In this document: piece after piece, positions 17,969-49,483 of the stretch
Layout: every line of letters begins with the position of its first letter
How positions within the stretch are numbered: the first letter of the stretch is position 1
Source: Gammaproteobacteria bacterium
Lineage (GTDB): Bacteria; Pseudomonadota; Gammaproteobacteria; JADZEE01
Reading direction: 5' to 3'
Assembly: GCA_050183625.1 (NCBI GenBank)
Contig: JBFXBD010000006.1
Location: forward strand, 42,653 to 106,652
DNA length: 64,000 bases
Made by a program: the position numbers and the translations under genes
The notes under the pieces: model-generated
What the model was told of the DNA's origin: nothing
Databases searched by the model: none
The model's input: the letters and a program-made list of their open reading frames with translations, nothing else

Positions 17969-18001
17969 GGCGCGCCGGGTCCGGCGGCTGAGCGGGCGGC
18001 A

Positions 18002-18577
18002 ATGAGCGGTTCGCTGGCGGCCCTGCTCGCGACGATCTGCGCCGGCAATCTCGTCGTCGATCATCTGCTCGGCATCAGCGCGGTACGGTCGGCCGCGCGG
18101 AACACGGACGCGGCCGATGCGCTGGCGCTCGGCGGCGCGGCCGCGATCCTGGTGACGGCGCTCGGTGGTGCGGCCGCGCAATGGCTGCTGGACCTGGTCG
18201 GGGCGGCCGCGCTCGTGCTTCCGGCCACGATGCTGATGGCGCTGGCGGCGGCGCGTGCGGTCTGCGCGCTCGCGGCTCGCCTGGCGCCGGCGCATGAACC
18301 GTTCGCCGCGCTCGAACTGCTGCTCGCGTTCGATACCGCCGTGCTCGGCGCCGCGTTGCTCGTACAGCACGAAGCCGGCGACTGGTCCGACGCCGCGGCG
18401 ACCGCGATCGGCCTCGCGATCGGCTTCGCGCTCGTCACGCTCGCGCTGGCGGCCCTGAGCCAGAGGCTGCGGGCCGCTCCGGTGCCGGCGGCCTTCGCCG
18501 GGTTGCCGATCGTGCTGCTGACCCTGGCACTCGCAGCGCTGGCCGGCACCGGCTTCCACGGCCTGGGGACGCGCTGA
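18002..18577 (+). CDS. rnfA: Rnf/Rsx electron-transport complex subunit A
   Basis: 191 aa polytopic membrane protein of the RnfA/E family, first gene of the rnf operon. It is diverged and Ala-rich, with LGISAV replacing the usual LGLCP. Confidence 0.7.
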
Positions 18578-19086
18578 TGCTCGCCGGCATCGCGATGATC
18601 GTGCTGGCCGCGGCGGCGCTCGCCTGGCTCGCCGGCGCCGCGCAGGACGGCACGGGGGCGGATTTGGACGACCGCATCGATGCCCTGCTGCCGCAGACCC
18701 AGTGCGGCCAGTGCGGGTTCGGCGGCTGCCGACCCTACGCAGCGGCGATCGGCGCCGGCTTGGCCGGCATCGACCGCTGCCCGCCGGGCGGCGAGCGAAC
18801 GCGGCGCGCGCTGGCACAGTTGCTCGGTGTCGATCCGGTGCCGGGGGCGGTCGCCGGTCCCGGGCCGGTGGTCGCCCGGATCGACGAATCCGCCTGCGTC
18901 GGCTGCGCCAAGTGCATCGCCGCCTGCCCGGTGGATGCCATCGTCGGTGCGCCGCGGCGGATGCACACTGTGATCGAGTCCTGGTGCACGGGATGCGGGC
19001 TGTGCCTGCCGCCATGCCCGACGGACTGTTTCTCTCTCGTGCCCGCCGCGCGCCGCGTGGAACTGCGCCTGCGGGAGCACGCATGA
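18577..19086 (+). CDS. rnfB: Rnf complex subunit B (ferredoxin-like)
   Basis: [10 protein letters not shown]-terminal cluster plus two 4Fe-4S motifs ([24 protein letters not shown]). Confidence 0.9.
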
Positions 19087-20504
19087 AGCAGGCGCCGCAC
19101 GGCTTCACCGGCGGTGTCGTGCTGGCCGCGTTCAAGCCGGACGCGGGTGCAATCGAGGATGCCGGCGTGCCGCAAGTGCTGCACCTGCCATTGAACCGGC
19201 ACGTCGGTACGCCGGGTGTCGCCGTCGTGGCGGCCGGCGAACGCGTTGCCCGCTTCCAGGTGATTGCGCGCGCCGGATCATACGTCGGCGTGCCGCTGCA
19301 CGCCCCAACCTCCGGCGTGGTGCTGGCCGCGGGCCCGGAGTCGATCCTCATCCAGGCCGATGGCCTGGACCGCGGCGCGCCGGCGGACCCGATCGATTGG
19401 CCCGTCGCGAGCCCGGCGCAACTGCGCGATGCCATCGGCGCGGCCGGTATCGTAGGCATGGGCGGCGCGGGATTCCCGGCGCGCGTCAAGCTGCGCGAAG
19501 CGGCCGCGCGCGCACCGCGGATGCTGATCGTCAACGCGGTGGAATGCGAGCCCTCGATTGGTTGCGACAGGGCGTTGCTGCGTCACCGCGCGCGCGAAGT
19601 GTTCGATGGCGCCCGGATCCTGGCACGCGCGAGCGGCGCCCCGCGCTGCGTGCTCGCCGTGAAGCAGGGCGACGACGTCCCGCAGGACTCCGGCGGGATC
19701 GAAGTCATCGCCGTGCCCGCGCGCTACCCGGCCGGCGGCGAGAAGCAACTCATCCAGGCACTGTGCGGCATCGAACTCGCCTCCGGTGCGTTGCCGATCG
19801 AGGCCGGGGTGTTGATGCACAATGTCGGCACCGCCGCGGCGGTGTACGCGGCGGTCGTGCGCGGCGAGCCGCTCGTATCGCGCGTGGTGACCGTGGCCGG
19901 CGCGGTGGCGCGCCCCGGGAATTTCCAGGTCCGCATCGGCACGCCGATCGCGTACCTGATCGAGCGCGCCGGTGGTGCGGCCGTCGCGGGCGCACGCATC
20001 CTGTCCGGCGGGCCGATGATGGGCCACCCGGTGGACGACCCAGGCGCCCCGATCGTCGGCACGACCAACGGCGTACTCCTGCTGGCGCCGTCGGCGCCCG
20101 TCGCCGAACAACCCTGCATCCGCTGCGGCCGCTGCATCGAGGTCTGTCCGGTCCAATTGCAGCCGCAGGCCTTGCTCGCGGCCGCACGCGAAGGGAATTT
20201 CGACCGCGCGCAGGATCTGCATCTGTTCGACTGCATCGAATGCGGTTGCTGCGCGTATGTCTGTCCGAGCCGCATTGGCCTGGTGGGCGAGTACCGCGCC
20301 GCGAAGTCGGCCGTCATGCAGGCCGATGCCGCCTGGCGGGCCGCGCAGTCGGCCCGCGCTCGCCACGACGCGCATGAGGTCCGGATCGCCCGTGCGCCGC
20401 CGTCGCCGTCGGCGACTTCGGCCCGCGCGCCGCGCCAGGACTACATCGCCGCGGCCATCGCGCGCGCGCGCCGGGACGGGAACGGCGGGGATTGCCCTCC
20501 ATGA
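19083..20504 (+). CDS. rnfC: Rnf complex subunit C
   Basis: RnfC/NqrF-like NADH-binding fold with 4Fe-4S motifs ([24 protein letters not shown]). Start ATG 19083 overlaps the rnfB stop (ATGA). Confidence 0.9.
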
Positions 20505-20541
20505 CGCAATCGCACGCGCGCCGGGCCGGGAGCCGGCGGCG

Positions 20542-21522
20542 ATGACCGGCAACGTGCAATTGCACGACGGCGGCTCCGTGGCCGGATTGATGCGCACGGT
20601 CCTGATCGCGCTGGTACCGGCGGCGGTGGCCGCCGTCGCGTACCGGGGCGTGGGTGCCGCGGTGCAGATTGCCCTGGCGGTGCTCGCGGCGCTCGCGGCC
20701 GAAGCGCTGGCGCTGCGGTTGCGGGGCGTTCCGGTACGGCCCGTTTTGAGCGACGGCAGCGTGCTGCTCACTGCGGTGTTGCTGGCGCTCGCCCTGCCGC
20801 CGGCCGGGCCCTGGTGGCTGGCGCCGGTGGGTACCGCATTCGCGGTGTTGCTGGTGAAGCATGCGTTCGGCGGCCTGGGCGCGAATCTGTTCAACCCGGC
20901 CATGGCCGGAGTCGCGTTGCTGCTCGCGGTGTTCCCGGCGCAGATGAGTCGCTGGCCGGCATCGCCTCCGCAGGCGGGGACGCAGCTCGCGGCCGTGTTC
21001 GGCACCGACGGAGTCGACGCGGTGTCCGGTGCAACCGCGCTGGCACAGGCCAGGACCGCACTGCGCGGCATGCGGATGCTCTCGGAACTGGAACCCGCGC
21101 AGGCCTGGGGCCGCATCGGCGCTGCCGGCGAGGAGTGGGTGAACCTGGCATTCCTGATCGGCGGGTTGTGGCTGCTGTGGCGGCGCGCGATCGGCTGGCG
21201 CATTCCGGCCGGCGTACTCGTCGCGATTGCGGTGCCGGCGGCCCTGGCGCACGGCGCCGATCCGGATCGCTTCCTGCCGGCCATGTTCCACCTGTTCAGC
21301 GGCGCGACCATGGCCGCGGCGTTCTTCATCGCCACCGATCCGGTGACCGCGCCGTCGACGCCGCGGGGCATGCTCGTCTTCGGCGCCGGTGTCGGCGCGT
21401 TGATCTGGTCGCTGCGGACCTGGGGGGCACACCCGGACGGAGTCGCCTTCGCGGTGCTGGCGATGAATGCGCTTGCGCCGCTCATCGAGCGCGGTACCGC
21501 ACCCAGGGTACTGGGGCGATGA
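20542..21522 (+). CDS. rnfD: Rnf complex subunit D
   Basis: RnfD/NqrB family membrane protein (LFNPAMAG…ATDPVT…). Start chosen at MTGNVQL. Confidence 0.85.
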   Translation: MTGNVQLHDGGSVAGLMRTVLIALVPAAVAAVAYRGVGAAVQIALAVLAALAAEALALRLRGVPVRPVLSDGSVLLTAVLLALALPPAGPWWLAPVGTAFAVLLVKHAFGGLGANLFNPAMAGVALLLAVFPAQMSRWPASPPQAGTQLAAVFGTDGVDAVSGATALAQARTALRGMRMLSELEPAQAWGRIGAAGEEWVNLAFLIGGLWLLWRRAIGWRIPAGVLVAIAVPAALAHGADPDRFLPAMFHLFSGATMAAAFFIATDPVTAPSTPRGMLVFGAGVGALIWSLRTWGAHPDGVAFAVLAMNALAPLIERGTAPRVLGR

Positions 21523-22136: not shown

Positions 22137-22204
22137 AATCGCCGGCGGTTCGCGCCGGTGTCGCTGTGTCAGAATGCCGCCGCGCCGCGCGGAGGGGTGC
22201 CGCC

Positions 22205-23983
22205 ATGCTCGAACAGATCGCCATCGTCCTGCTCGCCGCGGTTCTGCTCGTGCCGCTGTTTCAGCGCCTGGGCTTCGGATCGGTGCTGGGATACCTGATC
22301 GCGGGGCTGGCGCTCGGGCCATGGGGCCTGCGCGTCGTCGGCGACGTCGAGGCCGTACTGCACTTCTCCGAACTCGGCGTGACGCTGCTGCTGTTCGTCA
22401 TCGGCCTGGAACTGCAGCCGTCGCGGCTGTGGGCGCTGCGCCGGCCGGTGTTCGGGCTGGGCAGCGCACAGGTCGGCGTCACGGCGGCCGTTGCCGGCGC
22501 GATTGCCTGGTTTGCGGGCGTGCCCGCGGTCGGCGCCGCGGCGATCGGCATCGCGCTGTCGCTGTCGTCGACCGCCTACGTGCTGCGGATGCTCGCCGAG
22601 CGCGGCGAACTGGCCGCACGCCACGGCCGCGAGGCGTTCGCCATCCTGCTGTTCCAGGACGTGGCCGTGATCCCGGTGCTCGCGCTGCTGCCGATCGCCG
22701 CGGTCGCGGACGCGGCACCCGATCCGCTCGCGGCGGCGCGCGCGATCGGCGCACTCGCGCTCATGCTGGTGCTCGGCCGGTACGTGCTGCAGCAGGTCTT
22801 CCGCGCGGCCGCACGGCATACCGACCGGGAGATCTTCACCGCTACGGCGCTGCTGGCGGTTGCCGGCACGGCGTGGCTGATGACGCAGGCGGGGTTGTCG
22901 ACCTCCCTGGGCGCGTTCATGGCCGGCGTGCTGCTGGCGGATTCGGAATTCCGCCATGAGATCGAAGCCGTTCTCGAACCGTTCAAGGGCCTGTTGCTCG
23001 GGTTGTTCTTCATCGCCGTGGGCATGTCGGTGAATCTCGGCCTGGTGCGTGCCGAGCCGGTCGTGCTGCCGGCGCTCGCGGTCGGGCTGCTGGCGCTGAA
23101 GATCGCCGCGACGTACGCGGTTGCGCGGTTCTCGGGCGCGAATCAGGACCAGGCCCGCAAGCTCGCGGTCGCACTCGCGGCCGGCGGCGAGTTCGCCTTC
23201 GTGCTGCTCGCGCTCGCGGCGAGCCTGGGGCTCCTGGATGTCCGCGGCGCGGACGCGCTCGTGGTGGTGGTCACGCTGACCATGATGCTGGCGCCGTTGC
23301 TGCTTGCCGTCGAGGATCGCATCCGCCGCCATCGCGCCGAACACCCGGCCGAGCCCCAGTACGACCGGATCGACGATCCGCCGCGCAAGGTGGTGATCGT
23401 GGGCCTGGGCCGGTTCGGCCAGATCGTCGGCCGCATCCTGCGCATGCGCGGGATCCCGTTCACCGCCCTGGACGCGAGCGCCGAGCAGGTGGACTTCCTG
23501 CGCCGGTACGGCAACAAGGTCTATTACGGCGATGCCTCGCGCCGCGAACTGATCCAGGCCGCCAAGGTCGACCAGGCCGCGCTGGTGATCGTCGCGGTCG
23601 GCAATCTCGCCCAGTCGATGAAGATCATCGACGCACTGCGCCGAGCCTGCCCCGGGGTTCCCATCTTCGCCCGGGCACGCAACCGCCAGCACTGCTATGC
23701 GCTGATGGACCTGGGCGTGCGTTGGCTGGTGCGCGACACCCTGCATTCGAGCCTGGCGATGGCGCAGGAAGTCCTCGCCGCATTGGGCGACCCGCCGGAT
23801 CGGGCCGGCCGGGCGGTTCGGACCTTTCGCGACCACGACGAGCAGCTGCTCCGGGAACAGCACGCCGTACAGCGCGACGAGGCCGCGCTCGTGCAGAGCG
23901 CGCGCGACGCCGCCGAGGAGTTGCGCAGGCTGTTCGAGCAGGACGCCGGCGGCGATCCCGAGGTGCGCGAGACCGCGCTCTGA
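22205..23983 (+). CDS. kefB: Glutathione-regulated K+-efflux antiporter KefB/KefC family (CPA2 + RCK/TrkA-N)
   Basis: N-terminus MLEQIAIVLLAAVLLVPLFQRLGFGSVLGYLIAGLALGPWGL matches KefB/KefC. C-terminal KTN/RCK domain (VVIVGLGRFGQ). Confidence 0.85.
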   Translation: MLEQIAIVLLAAVLLVPLFQRLGFGSVLGYLIAGLALGPWGLRVVGDVEAVLHFSELGVTLLLFVIGLELQPSRLWALRRPVFGLGSAQVGVTAAVAGAIAWFAGVPAVGAAAIGIALSLSSTAYVLRMLAERGELAARHGREAFAILLFQDVAVIPVLALLPIAAVADAAPDPLAAARAIGALALMLVLGRYVLQQVFRAAARHTDREIFTATALLAVAGTAWLMTQAGLSTSLGAFMAGVLLADSEFRHEIEAVLEPFKGLLLGLFFIAVGMSVNLGLVRAEPVVLPALAVGLLALKIAATYAVARFSGANQDQARKLAVALAAGGEFAFVLLALAASLGLLDVRGADALVVVVTLTMMLAPLLLAVEDRIRRHRAEHPAEPQYDRIDDPPRKVVIVGLGRFGQIVGRILRMRGIPFTALDASAEQVDFLRRYGNKVYYGDASRRELIQAAKVDQAALVIVAVGNLAQSMKIIDALRRACPGVPIFARARNRQHCYALMDLGVRWLVRDTLHSSLAMAQEVLAALGDPPDRAGRAVRTFRDHDEQLLREQHAVQRDEAALVQSARDAAEELRRLFEQDAGGDPEVRETAL

Positions 23984-24087
23984 TCCCCGGGACCGCTGCC
24001 CCGGGGTGCGCGGGCTGCAGCATAATCGGGAGTTTCACGGCAAACGAACAGGGCGCGTCGATGGCGCTGCCCGCCAGGAGAGAGAAC

Positions 24088-25224
24088 ATGATCCCCAGGA
24101 CACTCTACAGCGCCGAACACGAGCAGTTCCGCGACTCGGTGCGCCGGTTCGTCGAGCGCGAGATCGTGCCGCAGCACGCGCGCTGGGAACACGAGGGCAT
24201 CGTGCCGCGCGAGACCTGGCTCGCCGCGGGCGCGGCAGGCCTGCTGCTGTGCTCGGTGCCCGAGGAATACGGCGGCATGGGTGGGGATTTCCTGCACTCG
24301 TGCGTGGTGATCGAGGAACTGGCGCGCGTGGGTGCTTCCGGGCCGGGCTTCGGGCTGCACTCGGAGATCGTCGCGCCCTACATCCTGCGCTACGGAAGCG
24401 AGGCGCAGAAGCGCGAACTGCTCCCGGCCATGGCCCGGGGCGAGATCGTCGGCGCCATCGCCATGACCGAGCCGGGTGCCGGCAGCGATCTACAGGGGAT
24501 CCGCACCCGCGCCGTGCGCGACGGCGACGATCTGATCGTCAACGGCTCGAAAATCTTCATCACCAACGGCCAGAACGCCGACGTGGTGATTACGGTCGCC
24601 CGAACCGATCCGGACGCCGGCCACAAGGGCATCAGCCTGGTGCTGGTGCGTCGCGGCGACCCCGGCTTCGAGCGCGGTCGAAACCTGGAAAAGATCGGCT
24701 GGAAGGCGCAGGACACCTCCGAGCTGTTCTTCAACGACGTGCGCGTGCCCGCCGGCCGGATCCTCGGCGAGGCCGGGCGCGGATTCCGCTATCTCATGGA
24801 ACAACTCGGCCAGGAAAGGCTGACGGCCTGCGTCCGCGGTGCTGCGGTGCTGGAGTCGATCCTGGAGCAGACGGTCCGCTATACGAAGGAGCGCCAGGCC
24901 TTCGGGCAGCCTTTGTTCGAGCAGCAGAATACGCGCTTCAAGCTCGCCGACGCCAAGACCCGGGCCGTGGTGTGCCGTACCTTCGTCGACCGCTGCGTGG
25001 AACTGCACATGCAAGGCACGCTGGACTCCACGCTCGCGGCGATGGCCAAGATGTACGTCACGGACCTGGTGTGCGAAGTGCTGGACGACCTGCTGCAGAT
25101 GCACGGCGGCTACGGCTTCATGTGGGAATATCCGGTGGCACGCGCCTGGGCGGACAACCGCGTGACGCGGATCGCCGGCGGCACATCGGAAATCATGAAG
25201 GAGATCATCAGCCGCGCGCTGTGA
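24088..25224 (+). CDS. Acyl-CoA dehydrogenase
   Basis: ACAD family (AIAMTEPGAGSDL, C-terminal …GGTSEIM). RBS AGGAGAG lies 5 nt upstream. Confidence 0.9.
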   Translation: MIPRTLYSAEHEQFRDSVRRFVEREIVPQHARWEHEGIVPRETWLAAGAAGLLLCSVPEEYGGMGGDFLHSCVVIEELARVGASGPGFGLHSEIVAPYILRYGSEAQKRELLPAMARGEIVGAIAMTEPGAGSDLQGIRTRAVRDGDDLIVNGSKIFITNGQNADVVITVARTDPDAGHKGISLVLVRRGDPGFERGRNLEKIGWKAQDTSELFFNDVRVPAGRILGEAGRGFRYLMEQLGQERLTACVRGAAVLESILEQTVRYTKERQAFGQPLFEQQNTRFKLADAKTRAVVCRTFVDRCVELHMQGTLDSTLAAMAKMYVTDLVCEVLDDLLQMHGGYGFMWEYPVARAWADNRVTRIAGGTSEIMKEIISRAL

Positions 25225-25261
25225 ACGCGCTCGCGTTGCTCCCGGCCGGGATGCGCGGCCG

Positions 25262-34627: not shown

Positions 34628-34872
34628 CCGGCGCCGGGTCACGTCTGCGCGCGCGCCGTCATGCTTGTTGACCTGCGCTTTATCCACAAGTCTCGTCCAT
34701 ATGCTAATCTCGGCCCGCGTCGTCGCCGGAGGACCGCTGAACCACGGATTGGCGCGTGGCATCGCGATGTGATCGCGGTGCATCCAGGATCGCGTTCATC
34801 CGTCGGGTGCGTCCCCTCGCTGGCGTGCGGCGCAGGCCGTGTCAGTCACACACCCAGGCTAGGAGATTCACG

Positions 34873-35784
34873 ATGAGTGCGATCCGCATCACCAACGATG
34901 CCCTGTTCGACAATTTCCGTCAGTTGCGCATCGAGGTCGAGCCAGAGCTGGCAACGGCCTGGATGTTCATGCAGCCGCATCCGCGGCCGTGTTTCACCCC
35001 GGAACTGCTCGACGAGATCCAGCAGTACCAGCGCATGCTGGTGCATTACCGCGGCCACCTGCCCCAGGGCAACGAACTGGTGCGGATCGACTATCAGGTA
35101 TTGGCGTCGTCGGATCCGGCGATATTCAACCTCGGCGGCGACCTGGAGCGTTTTCTGCGTTGCATCGAGAACCGCGACGCCGAATGGCTGCGCCGCTACG
35201 GCTACGCCTGCGTCGAGGCGGGATACCGCAGCCTGACCGGCTACGACCAGTCGATAACGACGATCTCGCTGATGCGCGGCGAGGCGCTCGGCGGGGGCCT
35301 GGAGTCCGCGCTCTTCAGCCACGTGATGATCGCCGAGCGGGACGCGAAGATGGGCCTGCCCGAGGTGCTCTTCAACCTGTTCCCGGGGATGGGTGCGTTC
35401 CAGCTCATCGCCCGGCGTACCAGCGCGGCGCAGGCGCAGCGCATGATCCAGAGCGGCCGCATCTACGGCGCCGAGGAACTGTATGACCTGGGCATCGTCG
35501 ACGTGCTCGCCGAGCCCGGCGACGGCATCGCCGCCCTGCATGCGTACGTGAAGTCCCATCGCCGGCGCCAGAATGCCAACCTCGCGATCGAGCGCGTGCG
35601 CCGGCTCGCGGCGCCGGTATCGTACGACGAGCTGACCAAGGTCGTGGACATCTGGGTGGACGCGGCCATGCAGCTCGACGAGCGCGACCGCCGGACGATC
35701 CAGCGCCTGATCCGCAGCCAGAACCGCCTGCCCGGTGCACCAGCCGTCCAGGCCGCCGAGCCGCCGCTGCGCGAGGTGGGCTGA
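34873..35784 (+). CDS. rpfF: DSF-family signal synthase RpfF (crotonase superfamily)
   Basis: Long blocks match Xanthomonas RpfF as I recall it: VLASSDPAIFNLGGDL, GLPEVLFNLFPGMGAF, DIWVDAAMQLDE…RLIRSQ. RBS AGGAGA lies upstream. Convergent with the rpfC/rpfG homologues. Confidence 0.85.
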   Translation: MSAIRITNDALFDNFRQLRIEVEPELATAWMFMQPHPRPCFTPELLDEIQQYQRMLVHYRGHLPQGNELVRIDYQVLASSDPAIFNLGGDLERFLRCIENRDAEWLRRYGYACVEAGYRSLTGYDQSITTISLMRGEALGGGLESALFSHVMIAERDAKMGLPEVLFNLFPGMGAFQLIARRTSAAQAQRMIQSGRIYGAEELYDLGIVDVLAEPGDGIAALHAYVKSHRRRQNANLAIERVRRLAAPVSYDELTKVVDIWVDAAMQLDERDRRTIQRLIRSQNRLPGAPAVQAAEPPLREVG

Positions 35785-35839
35785 GGCGGGCGACGCGCCG
35801 CCGCTTGGGTGGGCGGCGGCGCGTCGGAGCGCTCGGGGA

Positions 35840-38386
<2,547 letters not shown>

Positions 38387-38395
38387 GCGGGGGTC

Positions 38396-39454
38396 TCAGT
38401 CGACGTCCTGCAGGGGACGGTGGTCGAGTTCGAAGCGCGCGACGCGGTCGAGCTGGGCGCCGAATGCCTCGACGCATTGCGGGTCGAAAGCCGCGCCCTT
38501 GGCGCGCATGAGGATTTCGACCGCCCGATCCATCGACACCGCCGCGCGCCACGGCCGCGGCGAGGTGAGCGCGTCGTAGGCGTCGACCACCGCGACGATG
38601 CGCGCCGGCAATGGAATCGATTCGGCGCGCAGCCGGTGCGGATAGCCGCTGCCGTCCCAGCGCTCGTGGTGCGCCAGGGCGACCACCGCGGCCTGCTGCA
38701 GGTACGGCGAGCGATGTTCCCCGAGGAAGGCGTGGCCGAGCGAGCAGTGGTTGCGGACCACGTCGAATTCCTCGGCCGTGAGCCGCTCGGGCTTGAGCAG
38801 GATGCGATCCGGCACGCCGATCATGCCGACGTCATGCAGCATCGCGGCCAGTTCTATCGCCTCGGCCTGCTCCTCGGGCAGGCCGAGGCGGCTGGCGATC
38901 AGCCGGGCGAAGTGCGCCGCGCGCACGGTGGCCTGGCCGGTCGGATCCTCGCGGTAGACGGCGTGGCGGGCGAGAATGAGCAGTGATTCACGCTCCCGAT
39001 CGCGCAGCAGCCGGGTCGCGTCCGCCACCTGCTTCTCGAGCCAGCGCGAACGATTGCGCAGCATCTGCGCCTGCCGGCGCATCGTCAGCAGGTTGTGGCA
39101 GCGCGCCCGGCACTCGTGGTGGTCCACCGGCTTGTTGAGGATGTCGGTGGCACCGGCCTCCAGCGCCTGGTAGCGCACGATGCGGTCGTCGACGACGGTG
39201 ATGACGATGATCGGTACGTCAGCCAGGCCCGGGATCGCACGCAGGCGGCGGATGAACTCCACGCCATCCATCTCCGGCATCTTGTAGTCGGTGAGGATGA
39301 GGTCGGGCCGGTTGGCCTGCGCCCAGGCGAGCGCGGCGAGCGGGCTCGAAAAGCTCTCCAGCACCAGGGTCGCGTCGAGCGACGCCAGGAGTTCTTCGAG
39401 AATGAGCCGGCTCGTCGACTGGTCGTCGACAATCATGACCGTCGCCACGGACAT
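38396..39454 (-). CDS. rpfG: Response regulator RpfG-like (REC + HD-GYP c-di-GMP phosphodiesterase)
   Basis: REC domain (IVDDQ…DLILTDYKMPEMDG) plus HD-GYP with HHERWDGSGYP. Confidence 0.9.
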   Translation of the reverse strand: MSVATVMIVDDQSTSRLILEELLASLDATLVLESFSSPLAALAWAQANRPDLILTDYKMPEMDGVEFIRRLRAIPGLADVPIIVITVVDDRIVRYQALEAGATDILNKPVDHHECRARCHNLLTMRRQAQMLRNRSRWLEKQVADATRLLRDRERESLLILARHAVYREDPTGQATVRAAHFARLIASRLGLPEEQAEAIELAAMLHDVGMIGVPDRILLKPERLTAEEFDVVRNHCSLGHAFLGEHRSPYLQQAAVVALAHHERWDGSGYPHRLRAESIPLPARIVAVVDAYDALTSPRPWRAAVSMDRAVEILMRAKGAAFDPQCVEAFGAQLDRVARFELDHRPLQDVD

Positions 39455-39609
39455 CTCCCGCTTTTGGCACCGCGGCGTTCAGCCCGACGCCAGGGTGCAG
39501 CCGGCACCTGCGCGTCGCTACAGGCCAGCGGACGCGCCGTGCCGTGTGGAACTCGGTGCCCGATTATAGGCCTGCAATTGGCTCTGACCAGCCTCGCCGC
39601 GCGGCATTT

Positions 39610-44226: not shown

Positions 44227-45792
44227 GTGGCGATGAACGACGATGCGGCCGACACCCTTGCCCGCCTGATCGCGCGCTGCGTTGCGCGATTCGGCGCGCG
44301 GCCGGCCCTGGTCGATGGCGATCGGCGCTGGACCTACGCCGCCCTGGATCGCGATCGCCGCGCCGCCGCGCGCGCCTTCATCGCCGCCGGCGTGCAGCCC
44401 GGGGATCGGGTCTGCCTGTGGGCGCCGAACAGCGCGGAGTGGATCATCGCCTGCCTGGGCCTGCAATCGGCCGGCGCCGTGCTCGTGCCGACCAAACCGC
44501 GCTACCAGGGTGGCGCGGCGGCGGACAACGTCCGCCGCAGCGGCGCGCGGATCGCGGTGACCGCCGGCGAGGTCCTCGGTGTCGACTATCCGGCGGCGCT
44601 GCGCGCGCAGCGCCTGCCTGCGCTGGAGCGGATCGTGGTCCTCGGCGCAGCCGATGCCGCGGACGACGGCTGGGCACGGTTCCTCGCCGCAGGCGAAGCG
44701 GTCGATCCGGCGCTCGCCGAGGCACGTGCGCAGGCCGTCGGGCCCGACGATCTCAGCGACATCATGTTCACCTCCGGGACCACCGGCCAGTCCAAGGGCG
44801 TGATGCTGTCCCATGCGCAGACCGTCCGCACCTACACCGGCTGGTCGCAGTCGGTCGGCCTGTGCGCGGACGATCGCTACCTTGTCCCGGCACCGTTCTT
44901 CCATTCGTTCGGCTACAAGGCCGGCTGGCTGGCAGGCTTCATCGCCGGCGCGGCGGTCTACCCGCTGGCGGTATTCGAGGTCGATCCCGTGCTGGCGCTG
45001 ATCCAGCGCGAGCGCATCACCTGCCTGCCCGGGCCGCCGACGATCTTCCTGTCCATCCTCGCGCACCCCCGGCGCGCCGCGTTCGATCTCTCCAGCCTGC
45101 GGCTGGTGGCCACCGGCGCGGCCAACGTCCCGGTGGAGATGGTGCGACGGTTGCGCACCGAGATGGGCATCGGCGTCGTGCTGACCGGCTACGGGCTGAC
45201 CGAGGCCAGTGCGACCGTGTCCATGAGCCGGCATGATGACGACCCCGAAGTGATCGCCACGACCGTCGGCAGGCCGATCGCCGGCGTGGAAGTGCGCTGC
45301 GTGGACGCGCGGGGGCGGTCGGTAGCGGTCGGCGAGCCGGGCGAAATCCTGGTGCGCGGCTACAATGTGATGCGCGGCTACCTGGACGATCCGGCCGCGA
45401 CCGCCGCCGCGATCGACGCCGAGGGCTTCCTGCACACCGGCGACGTCGGGGTGATCGATGAGCGCGGCTACCTGCGGATCACGGATCGGATCAAGGACAT
45501 GTTCATCGTCGGCGGGTTCAACTGCTACCCGGCCGAGATCGAGAACACGCTGTACCGCATGCCGGGGATCGCGCAGGTGGCGGTGATCGGGGTGCCCGAC
45601 GCGCGCATGGGCGAGGTCGGCAAGGCGTTCATCGTGCGCAAGGCCGGCGCCGATCTCGCCGCGGACGACGTCGTCGCCTGGTGCCGCGCCGAGATGGCGA
45701 ACTACAAGGTGCCGCGCCACGTCGAGTTCGTCGACGCCCTGCCCCTGAACGCCTCGGGCAAGGTCTTGAAGCACCAGTTGCGGGCGTCATGA
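44227..45792 (+). CDS. ANL-superfamily acyl-CoA synthetase (AMP-forming)
   Basis: AMP-binding motif [16 protein letters not shown] and C-terminal ligase-family lysine region. Confidence 0.85.
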
Positions 45793-45912
45793 GCAGCGGC
45801 GCCATCGCCGCGAGTCCGAACCCGGAATGTCCCCGGTCCCCGCACTCGCCGGCCGTGCGGGTTCACCTGGATCCTGGCGCCAAAGCGCCCCTTGTACACG
45901 GAGGATGAAAGC

Positions 45913-46896
45913 ATGAACGTACGTCAATCGACCCGTTGCGCCGCCGCGCTCGTCCTGGCGCTTGGCGCCGGCAGCGCCGGCGCCCGGACCATCGGCATCA
46001 TGGGCGACAGCCTTTCCGATACCGGCAATCTGTCGGCCGCGCTGAGCTCGGTGTCGTTCGGCCTGGTCGACATCCCGTCGAGCGACACCTACTACCAGGG
46101 CCGGTTCTCCAACGGTCCGATCTGGGTCGATTATCTAGAGTCCGCCAATCCGCAATGGTCCGTGGTCAGCATTGCCGTCGGCGGCGCCTACACCGGCAGG
46201 TACGGTGAAGTCGACAACACGGGAGACAACGATTTCGCGGCGGTGCCGATCTTCGGCGGTGCCTTGCAGAACGCGGCGACCGGGCTGGCGTCGCAGCGGG
46301 ATTCGGTGCCCGACCTGCACGGTACGGACGTTTCCGTGGTGATCTGGGCCGGGGCGAACGACCTGCTGTATGCCGCGGACCTGGGCTACGCAACCGCGTC
46401 CGACATCGTCACTCAGGCCATCGCCAACATCGGCGCGGCGGTCGACGCGATGCTGGCCAAGGGCGCGGACGGCGTGTACGTCGTCAACATGCCGGATCTC
46501 GGGCGCACGCCGCGCGCGCTGGTGGAGGGACGGCAGGGCGAACTGACCGCGGCGGCCAGCCTGTTCAACCAGCAGCTCGCGATCGATGTCATCGACACAG
46601 CCATGGGCGTGCGGCTGATCGACGTCGCCACGCCGTTCGCTGCGCTGCTCGACGCGCCCCTCGACTTCGGGTTCACGAACGTGACCCAGGGTTGCTTGGA
46701 CGATTTGTTCGACACCACGCCCTGCGCCGATGCGCAGGGGTTGTTGTTCTGGGACGAGTTGCATCCAACGACCGCGGGGCACGCCGCGATTGCCCAGGCG
46801 TTCCAGGATGCGCTGGCGCCGGTACCCGTGCCGCCGGCGCTGCCGCTGCTGGCGGGCGGCCTCGCGCTTCTCTGGCGCCGCCGGTCCGCGGCCTGA
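45913..46896 (+). CDS. Secreted SGNH/GDSL lipase/esterase with PEP-CTERM-like C-terminal sorting signal
   Basis: Signal peptide, GDSLSDTGN block I, …GANDL…, and a C-terminal DxxH catalytic pair. The tail reads VPVPPALPLLAGGLALLWRRRSAA: a Pro-rich motif, a hydrophobic helix, then a basic cluster. Confidence 0.75.
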   Translation: MNVRQSTRCAAALVLALGAGSAGARTIGIMGDSLSDTGNLSAALSSVSFGLVDIPSSDTYYQGRFSNGPIWVDYLESANPQWSVVSIAVGGAYTGRYGEVDNTGDNDFAAVPIFGGALQNAATGLASQRDSVPDLHGTDVSVVIWAGANDLLYAADLGYATASDIVTQAIANIGAAVDAMLAKGADGVYVVNMPDLGRTPRALVEGRQGELTAAASLFNQQLAIDVIDTAMGVRLIDVATPFAALLDAPLDFGFTNVTQGCLDDLFDTTPCADAQGLLFWDELHPTTAGHAAIAQAFQDALAPVPVPPALPLLAGGLALLWRRRSAA

Positions 46897-46897
46897 C

Positions 46898-48556
<1,659 letters not shown>

Positions 48557-48655
48557 GGCCGCCACCGAAGGCCGTGGAGCCTGCGGGGGCGCGCATTCGT
48601 CACCGCGGCGGATGTGGGCGGTGCGTCCGTGCGCCGGAGCAGGAGCAATCGGAAG

Positions 48656-49483
48656 ATGAGCGACGCAGAACCCGAAGTGCTGTACACCGCCGCGGATGGC
48701 GTTGCGGTGGTGACGCTCAATCGTCCGGCGGCGCGCAACGCCATGACCTACGAGATGGCGGTGCAGTTGCGGCAGGCGATGCTGCGGGCGCAGGGCGAGG
48801 AAGCCGTGCGAATCGTCGTGCTCACCGGGGCGGGCGCTGCGTTCTGCGTCGGGCTCGACGTCAACGCCATCGTCTCGACCGCCGACCACGGCGCACCGCA
48901 GCGTTACATCGGCGCACTGCACTGGCCGCTCGATCCGGCGATGCGCCACGACTACCAGGCCACGCACAATTATTTCCCGGGCATCGACAAGCCCATCATC
49001 GGCATGCTGAACGGCGCCACGGCCGGCCTCGGCCTCATCTACGCGGCGTTCTGCGACTTGTGCTTCGCCGCCGACAGCGCGGTGTTCAGCACCAGCTTCG
49101 CCCGCCGGGCGGTCGCGGCGGAGTACGGCATCGCGTGGTTGCTGCCGCGCCTGGTCGGGCAGGCGCGGGCGGCGGATCTGCTGCTGTCCGCGCGCAGGTT
49201 CGATGCGGCGGAGGCACTGCAAATCGGGCTCGTGGCGCGCGTGTATCCACGTGCCCGCCTGGAGGCGGAAACGATGGCGTACGCGCAGGACATCGCGCTC
49301 AATTGCGGGCCGCTGGCGCTGAGCGCCATCAAGCGCCAGCTCTGGGAGGCGCCGTTCCAGACGCTCGCCGAAGCCAACATGCTGTACAAGCGCCTGCTGA
49401 AGACCTGCACGGATTCCGCCGATCTGCGTGAAGCCGCGCTCAGCTTCCTGGAGAAGCGTCCGCCGCGATTCACCGGGCGGTGA
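48656..49483 (+). CDS. Enoyl-CoA hydratase/isomerase
   Basis: Crotonase fold (VVTLNRPAARNAM…GAGAAFCVGLD). Confidence 0.85.
   Translation: MSDAEPEVLYTAADGVAVVTLNRPAARNAMTYEMAVQLRQAMLRAQGEEAVRIVVLTGAGAAFCVGLDVNAIVSTADHGAPQRYIGALHWPLDPAMRHDYQATHNYFPGIDKPIIGMLNGATAGLGLIYAAFCDLCFAADSAVFSTSFARRAVAAEYGIAWLLPRLVGQARAADLLLSARRFDAAEALQIGLVARVYPRARLEAETMAYAQDIALNCGPLALSAIKRQLWEAPFQTLAEANMLYKRLLKTCTDSADLREAALSFLEKRPPRFTGR

Follow-up and report, generated by a model that had tools for sequence, protein, structure and literature searches.

The 64-kb stretch of DNA analysed here (the window; 70% GC), which belongs to an uncultured gammaproteobacterium, contains on its + strand an intact open reading frame (ORF) of 327 codons that runs from an ATG at 45913 to a TGA at 46894–46896. 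It encodes a 327-amino acid SGNH/GDSL hydrolase (45913–46896 including the stop codon) that ends in a candidate C-terminal sorting tail. The reading that we favour, at a probability of roughly 0.65, is that this protein is an exported GDSL/SGNH lipase bearing a diverged signal of the PEP-CTERM class, of the V-P-[L/V]-P (VPLPA-CTERM-like) subtype, and that it is processed by an exosortase. As far as its sequence goes, the tail belongs, as a diverged member, to a class of sorting signals already known, and the protein family that carries it often has such tails.

The diverged copy of the sorting tag takes up the last 25 residues of the lipase and reads VPVPP-ALPLLAGGLALLW-RRR-SAA, preceded by A-P (A-P-V304-P305-V306-P307-P308). 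Its first part, the motif V304-P305-V306-P307-P308 (46822–46836, + strand; codons checked), stands at the site of VPEP or VPLP in homologues. It is followed by a hydrophobic segment of 13 residues, A309–W321 (ALPLLAGGLALLW; 46837–46875, + strand), seen in the sequence, in the alignment and as a helix in an AlphaFold2 (AF2) model, and then by a basic cluster read from the sequence, R322–R324 (46876–46884, + strand), after which only SAA precedes the stop codon. An earlier note on this DNA had described the same build (proline-rich motif, hydrophobic run of 13 residues, Arg cluster) and had quoted the ORF translation; the build is present as described and the translation is exact. In PEP-CTERM tails, which stand at the C-terminus of proteins with a signal peptide, a PEP motif is followed by ~14 hydrophobic residues and these by a basic cluster (PMC1569441). 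The hydrophobic run of 13 residues with its RRR fits that layout, and the position fits as well: three residues separate the Arg cluster from the stop, in a protein with a signal peptide recognizable by eye. In length, the run fits better with the ~14-residue helix of PEP-CTERM tails than with an ordinary membrane anchor.

The assignment is carried mainly by comparison with related lipases. When the lipase was aligned with 15 homologues, P305 and P307 were found to be invariant, and the residue between them was V in the lipase under study, L in its own clade and E in canonical tails (A in homologue P0115). Thus V-P-V-P is aligned on the V-P-L-P of the closest relatives and on the V-P-E-P of more distant ones, which, together with the layout known for PEP-CTERM (PMC1569441), bears out the proposal of the earlier note that the tail is of this class with VPVPP in place of VPEP. 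The linker before the motif varies among the 16 aligned sequences, whereas the prolines of the motif do not. The closest relatives (P0002–P0007, 36–47% identity), as well as P0038, P0043, P0066 and P0115, end in VPLP[AGSP], a hydrophobic run and a basic cluster, with the exceptions that the motif of P0115 is NPLPAPP and that the basic cluster of P0003 is weak. More distant relatives (30–38% identity) have canonical VPEP tails, one of which scores 32.8 bits on the PEP-CTERM model TIGR02595.

A hidden Markov model (HMM) was built from ten VPLP-type homologue tails, the tail under study being left out. This tail HMM gave 30.7 bits (E = 5e-9) on the lipase tail, against a best score of 9.7 bits for the C-termini of the other 497 stop-to-stop ORFs of the window. 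Therefore, the resemblance appears to be inherited rather than an effect of composition, and by this comparison the tail and exosortase sorting signals are related by homology, beyond a likeness of shape. Searches made with the tail itself were uninformative: with 40 amino acids as query, no protein candidate had three shared 5-residue words, and an exhaustive phmmer search with 30 amino acids returned the lipase itself and four other proteins, none of them matched at its C-terminus (the three of the four that were inspected are repeat or low-complexity proteins).

Several observations weigh against the proposed exosortase signal, and they begin with the curated models. TIGR02595 gives 16.1 bits on a tail of 26 amino acids and 15.3 bits on one of 32 (cutoff 16), so that the cutoff is reached only when the tail is scored in isolation; for the full-length lipase TIGR02595 is not listed as a match. 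PF07589 remains at 13.7 bits (cutoff 20.7), and TIGR03370, the VPLPA-CTERM model (cutoff 25.35), does not match the tail at E ≤ 10. The Glu that defines PEP is replaced by Val306 (P305-V306-P307). The check with PEP-CTERM HMMs that the earlier note had proposed thus came out divided, the shorter tail just reaching the TIGR02595 cutoff and both the longer tail and PF07589 falling short. The genomic context points in the same direction. No exosortase was found among the ORFs of the window, whose polytopic membrane ORFs correspond to Rnf subunits, a Kef-type antiporter, a sensor kinase and a 187-amino acid ORF without a family; the gaps missed by the ORF filter, which was based on GC content at third codon positions (GC3), were inspected by hand and contained no membrane protein of exosortase size. 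No second ORF with such a tail was detected among the 498 ORF ends of the window. Likewise, no exosortase is annotated within 10 kb of five VPLP-tailed lipases (P0003, P0004, P0005, P0043 and P0115). The ten most plausible polytopic membrane ORFs of all the loci retrieved, judged by eye and with no family search made, resemble glycosyltransferases, transporters, NnrS, LptF/G and CcsA. Finally, Haft et al. caution that solitary PEP-CTERM regions with low scores could be left over from a lost system (PMC1569441).

These points, namely scores that are borderline or under cutoff with the Glu absent, a sole tail in 64 kb with no exosortase nearby and the caution of Haft et al. (PMC1569441), all favour the main rival reading, according to which the tail descends from PEP/VPLP signals but is a relic, with no cognate exosortase, that would merely anchor the lipase to the inner membrane on its periplasmic side. 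We regard this as unlikely, though it deserves to be taken seriously. A tail free of constraint ought to lose its motif, whereas here the P-x-P prolines, the A-P-V-P flank, the short helix and the RRR are all intact, and the score against the relatives' tails is 30.7 bits; moreover, for a stable membrane anchor a run of 13 hydrophobic residues is short. The absence of an exosortase and of a second tail from the window carries little weight, because the substrates of many-to-one sorting systems are mostly encoded far from the sorting enzyme (PMC3237569).

How widespread the architecture is was assessed by a regular expression (P-x-P, hydrophobic run, basic pair near the C-terminus). P-x-P followed by a transmembrane segment and a basic tail was found in 63 of the 120 best protein homologues and in 34 of the 80 loci listed from species-representative genomes; among the matches listed from the scan of genome contigs with the lipase alignment, identity did not exceed 37%. 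The tailed homologues include those of Nostoc and further cyanobacteria, of Edaphobacter and further Acidobacteria, and of Rhodoferax, Aquabacterium, Niveibacterium, Rheinheimera, Halioglobus, one Methylomonas metagenome-assembled genome (MAG) and one Chromatiaceae MAG. In place of the tail, other members of the lipase family have RTX repeats or no extension, and it is known that within a protein family PEP-CTERM may be a suffix that only part of the members have (PMC3237569). Since about half of the homologues carry such tails, a lipase with a sorting tail is a common architecture; by sequence comparison it is a real feature, not an unusual one, which many related lipases have alike. The earlier note had called it unusual for Xanthomonadaceae-like organisms, and neither part of that statement is supported. 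The GyrA encoded in the window, deposited at NCBI as MGE0383855.1, is 78% identical to that of the nearest MAG and 72–73% identical to Chromatiales, Steroidobacter and Steroidobacteraceae sequences, with no Xanthomonadaceae name among the best 120 GyrA matches; given these relatives, the host is not a member of the Xanthomonadaceae.

The V-P-V-P variant itself recurs. It is present on the lipase homologues of the Methylomonas MAG (L043, IVPVPATLPLFFSAISFLAFVSKRMK) and of the Chromatiaceae MAG (L044, LVPVPDTLALVMLGLAGLHIRRR). It also occurs, as VPVPV, at the end of an unrelated 203-amino acid protein that has a signal peptide and no Pfam domain and that terminates in NPVPVPVAVWLFGSGLIGLVGFARRK; its gene (L086, positions 939–1550, - strand, JGI contig Ga0535658_0014206) lies ~3.3 kb from the VPLP-tailed lipase P0004. 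Scored alone, the NPVPVPVAVWLFGSGLIGLVGFARRK tail passes TIGR03370 (26.1 bits against 25.35). Since lipases and this 203-amino acid protein both carry them, V-P-[V/L]-P tails appear to serve proteins of more than one kind in genomes of this sort, as would be expected of a sorting signal. Another variant was noticed among lipases of Synechococcaceae/Cyanobium MAGs (L028, L031, L042 and L055): VP[AG]PLP, a short hydrophobic run (e.g. LVGGLAAVGW), then SRRLRRRLR and ~15–20 more residues. These may represent a separate subclass of sorting signal.

Among the known tails, PEP-CTERM (TIGR02595/PF07589) shares with the lipase the three-part layout of P-x-P, ~13–14 hydrophobic residues and a basic cluster, and the canonical VPEP tails of homologous lipases can be aligned with the present tail column for column; the difference lies in the near-invariant Glu of PEP-CTERM, for which the lipase has Val (P-V-P). 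VPLPA-CTERM (TIGR03370), a curated PEP-CTERM variant which we take to be paired with a dedicated exosortase, XrtD, has, like the lipase, a hydrophobic residue for Glu (V-P-[L/V]-P-[A/P]), although its signature is VPLPA and that of the lipase VPVPPA. VPLPA-CTERM has been annotated beside PEP-CTERM proteins in the gammaproteobacterium Methylophaga (PMC12530212). At the level of whole proteins, a parallel is provided by the GDSL lipases with PEP-CTERM tails that occur in cyanobacteria, Acidobacteria and Betaproteobacteria, in which a signal peptide, a GDSL domain and a tail directly after block V follow one another as in the lipase studied here. Examples are P0065, P0113 (Niveibacterium umoris) and L018 (Edaphobacter modestus), at 30–38% identity; these differ in having canonical VPEP tails well over cutoff (32.8 bits) and gene neighbourhoods unlike that of the lipase.

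A bolder version of the favoured reading would be that gammaproteobacterial V-P-[V/L]-P tails form a sorting-signal subclass of their own, one missed by the curated PEP-CTERM and VPLPA-CTERM models and served by a dedicated, unnamed exosortase paralogue in uncultured high-GC hosts. We consider this distinctly doubtful; if true, such a subclass would couple the surface display of a lipase to an operon for fatty-acid activation. The more modest claim is that the two curated models between them probably under-call these tails: the VPLP-type homologue tails score 9.2–24.6 bits on TIGR03370 (cutoff 25.35) and up to 17.2 bits on TIGR02595.

It is very improbable that the tail arose by chance, as a proline-rich linker and a hydrophobic end generated by high-GC coding with no sorting system involved. 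Pro, Ala, Leu, Gly and Arg do abound in high-GC genomes, and HMMs of short tails do pick up composition, since TIGR03382, an unrelated model, likewise reaches its cutoff on the isolated lipase tail (16.5 bits; cutoff 15.85). Yet the 497 other ORF ends of the same 70% GC window all remain at or below 9.7 bits on the tail HMM, the prolines of the motif are invariant in 16 homologues of different lineages in spite of a variable linker before them, and in half of the homologues a recognizable PEP or VPLP tail stands at this position.

Recognition by another sorting enzyme, either rhombosortase (GlyGly-CTERM) or myxosortase (MYXO-CTERM), is also hardly credible. In its favour are the TIGR03382 score just given, TIGR03382 being a MYXO-CTERM model, a score of 15.0 bits on TIGR03901 (cutoff 20), again for the isolated tail, and a GG pair within the hydrophobic run. 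However, the homologue tails align with PEP/VPLP and not with GlyGly or MYXO motifs. MYXO-CTERM-type signals have an invariant Cys (bioRxiv 10.1101/2023.06.07.544157; PMC11980579), and there is no Cys among the last 60 residues of the lipase; on that description MYXO-CTERM was rejected, the 16.5 bits being attributable to the common helix-plus-Arg layout. In GlyGly-CTERM a Gly-rich motif precedes the helix (PMC3237569), whereas the GG of the lipase lies in the middle of it, and the model TIGR03501 is absent among the matches listed for the tail; GlyGly-CTERM was rejected on the position of the motif.

The favoured reading, a diverged PEP-CTERM-class signal, has some value for annotation, in that alignment with homologues exposes the tail despite the curated models. 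The protein is deposited at NCBI, in identical form, as MGE0383840.1, encoded on a contig of 144,274 bp, under the name 'SGNH/GDSL hydrolase family protein', with no mention of the tail because the curated models of sorting tails are at or under cutoff. The case serves mainly to indicate that V-P-[V/L]-P tails of gammaproteobacteria fall between the curated PEP-CTERM and VPLPA-CTERM models and stay unannotated; a retrained tail model would sharpen the prediction of enzymes displayed at the cell surface or in the matrix.

The body of the protein is that of a GDSL lipase with a signal peptide and SGNH blocks, as the earlier note had stated. PF00657 (Lipase_GDSL) scores 85.1 bits (cutoff 23.6), and the catalytic domain spans residues 25–301 (45985–46815, + strand) according to PF00657, the alignment and the AF2 model. 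It includes block I, GDSLSD (46003–46020), block III, GAND, around N149, and block V, D281-x-x-H284 (DELH; 46753–46764), all on the + strand. G31-D32-S33-L34, G147-x-N149-D150 and D281-x-x-H284 are invariant across the 16 aligned sequences, so that the catalytic and oxyanion residues S33, N149, D281 and H284 are all present. An AF2 model built on this 16-sequence alignment has an SGNH alpha/beta/alpha fold, with a mean predicted local distance difference test (pLDDT) score of 90.3 and values >90 across the domain (residues 25–301). Residues 302–308 are extended in it, and two helices, 3–16 at the N-terminus and 309–326 at the C-terminus, were modelled with lower confidence.

In a Foldseek search the AF2 model matched ChoE, PlaA and the Vibrio thermolabile hemolysin at E ~5e-15 (Pseudomonas aeruginosa ChoE: TM-score 0.72–0.82, with a maximum of 0.82 on the target). 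Among solved structures, Legionella PlaA (PDB 8a24; phmmer 9e-22) is the nearest in sequence. ChoE (6uqv), PlaA (8a24) and the Vibrio thermolabile hemolysin/PlpA (6jkz, 8h09) have the SGNH fold, the catalytic Ser-Asp-His and the Gly/Asn oxyanion residues in common with the lipase. However, identity to them is just 22–27%, and their alignment with the lipase stops at about residue 297, the tail having no counterpart in these chains. Orthology with PlaA was rejected, since the PlaA equivalog model NF045906 gives 109.2 bits, far under its cutoff of 450. The protein is accordingly best described as a predicted enzyme of the GDSL (lyso)phospholipase type.

The N-terminus has the layout of a putative Sec signal peptide, as read by eye: residues 1–24 (45913–45984, + strand) comprise MNVRQSTR and CAAALVLALGAGSAGA, with a putative cleavage after AGA and a mature N-terminus that starts with RT. 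A Shine-Dalgarno sequence, GGAGGA (45900–45905, + strand; read from the sequence), lies 7 nt upstream of the ATG, for which reason the ATG at 45913 is favoured as the start over a TTG at 45892. The gene was also found on two short Logan contigs (SRR27751815/6). An Rfam scan gave no match in the window and no riboswitch upstream of the lipase.

The lipase gene stands among genes of fatty-acid metabolism. Upstream, after a gap of 120 nt, lies an acyl-CoA ligase of the FadD3 family (44227–45792, + strand), which has an AMP-binding domain and passes NF005801 (727.6 bits against 657). Downstream there is a second acyl-CoA ligase (46898–48556, + strand). Because its GTG start is only 2 nt past the lipase stop, this ligase is probably co-transcribed with the lipase, and the gene call on the Logan contig L001 has the same lipase–ligase spacing. 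The stop-to-stop frame of an enoyl-CoA hydratase (48557–49483, + strand; PF00378, 155.9 bits) opens right after the stop of the second ligase. Taken at face value, the gene order points to the release of fatty acids for activation and beta-oxidation. Since this order is not conserved on the contigs of five relatives (P0003, P0004, P0005, P0043 and P0115), a functional link between the lipase and its neighbours is something that we infer. In actinobacteria, the FadD3 family is associated with the breakdown of steroid rings; a ligase of this family in a host with Steroidobacteraceae-like GyrA relatives hints that the operon might act on sterol esters rather than on plain lipids.

If the tail is indeed an exosortase signal, the following route may be envisaged. 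The signal peptide would carry the predicted active lipase/(lyso)phospholipase across the inner membrane via Sec, and the short C-terminal helix with its Arg cluster would retain it there until an exosortase encoded elsewhere in the genome recognized VPVP and removed the tail. The processed lipase would then move on to the cell surface or the extracellular matrix and free fatty acids, which the two ligases, if co-transcribed with it, and the enoyl-CoA hydratase would activate and oxidize. A sorted lipase encoded between two acyl-CoA ligases and a hydratase would suggest lipid scavenging at the cell surface, a role that is plausible and unremarkable.

Other genes of the window were noted in passing. 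Housekeeping genes were recognized by eye (lptD-surA-pdxA-rsmA, metG, pyrG-kdsA-eno, purL, purB and gyrA), the names being read off short C-terminal fragments (that of lptD off its translation), with no family search. In a cluster that resembles DSF (diffusible signal factor) signalling genes of the rpfF/rpfC/rpfG type (34741–39478), the + strand encodes a crotonase-family protein, and the - strand a hybrid sensor kinase bearing REC and Hpt domains together with a REC protein of the cyclic di-GMP phosphodiesterase type. The crotonase scores 338 bits on NF006452 (cutoff 177) but just 225 bits on the RpfF equivalog model (cutoff 550). This rpf-like cluster may have been behind the impression of a Xanthomonadaceae-like organism given in the earlier note. 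At 54507–55873 (- strand), a 328-amino acid ORF that has one Secretin_N domain (29 bits), lacks a secretin C-domain and looks like a small secretin-N-like protein adjoins a DUF7931 protein (154 bits). An Rnf-type electron-transport cluster occupies 17969–21522 (+ strand), with an RnfA/E-like subunit, an Fe-S/RnfC-like region and RnfD (308 bits), and is followed by the Kef-type K+/H+ antiporter (~22200–23983). An acyl-CoA dehydrogenase (~24080–25230) and a class II dihydroorotase (~57320–58355), both on the + strand and both ordinary genes, were identified by eye; the GC3-based filter had passed them over because in both cases the stop-to-stop frame extends far upstream.

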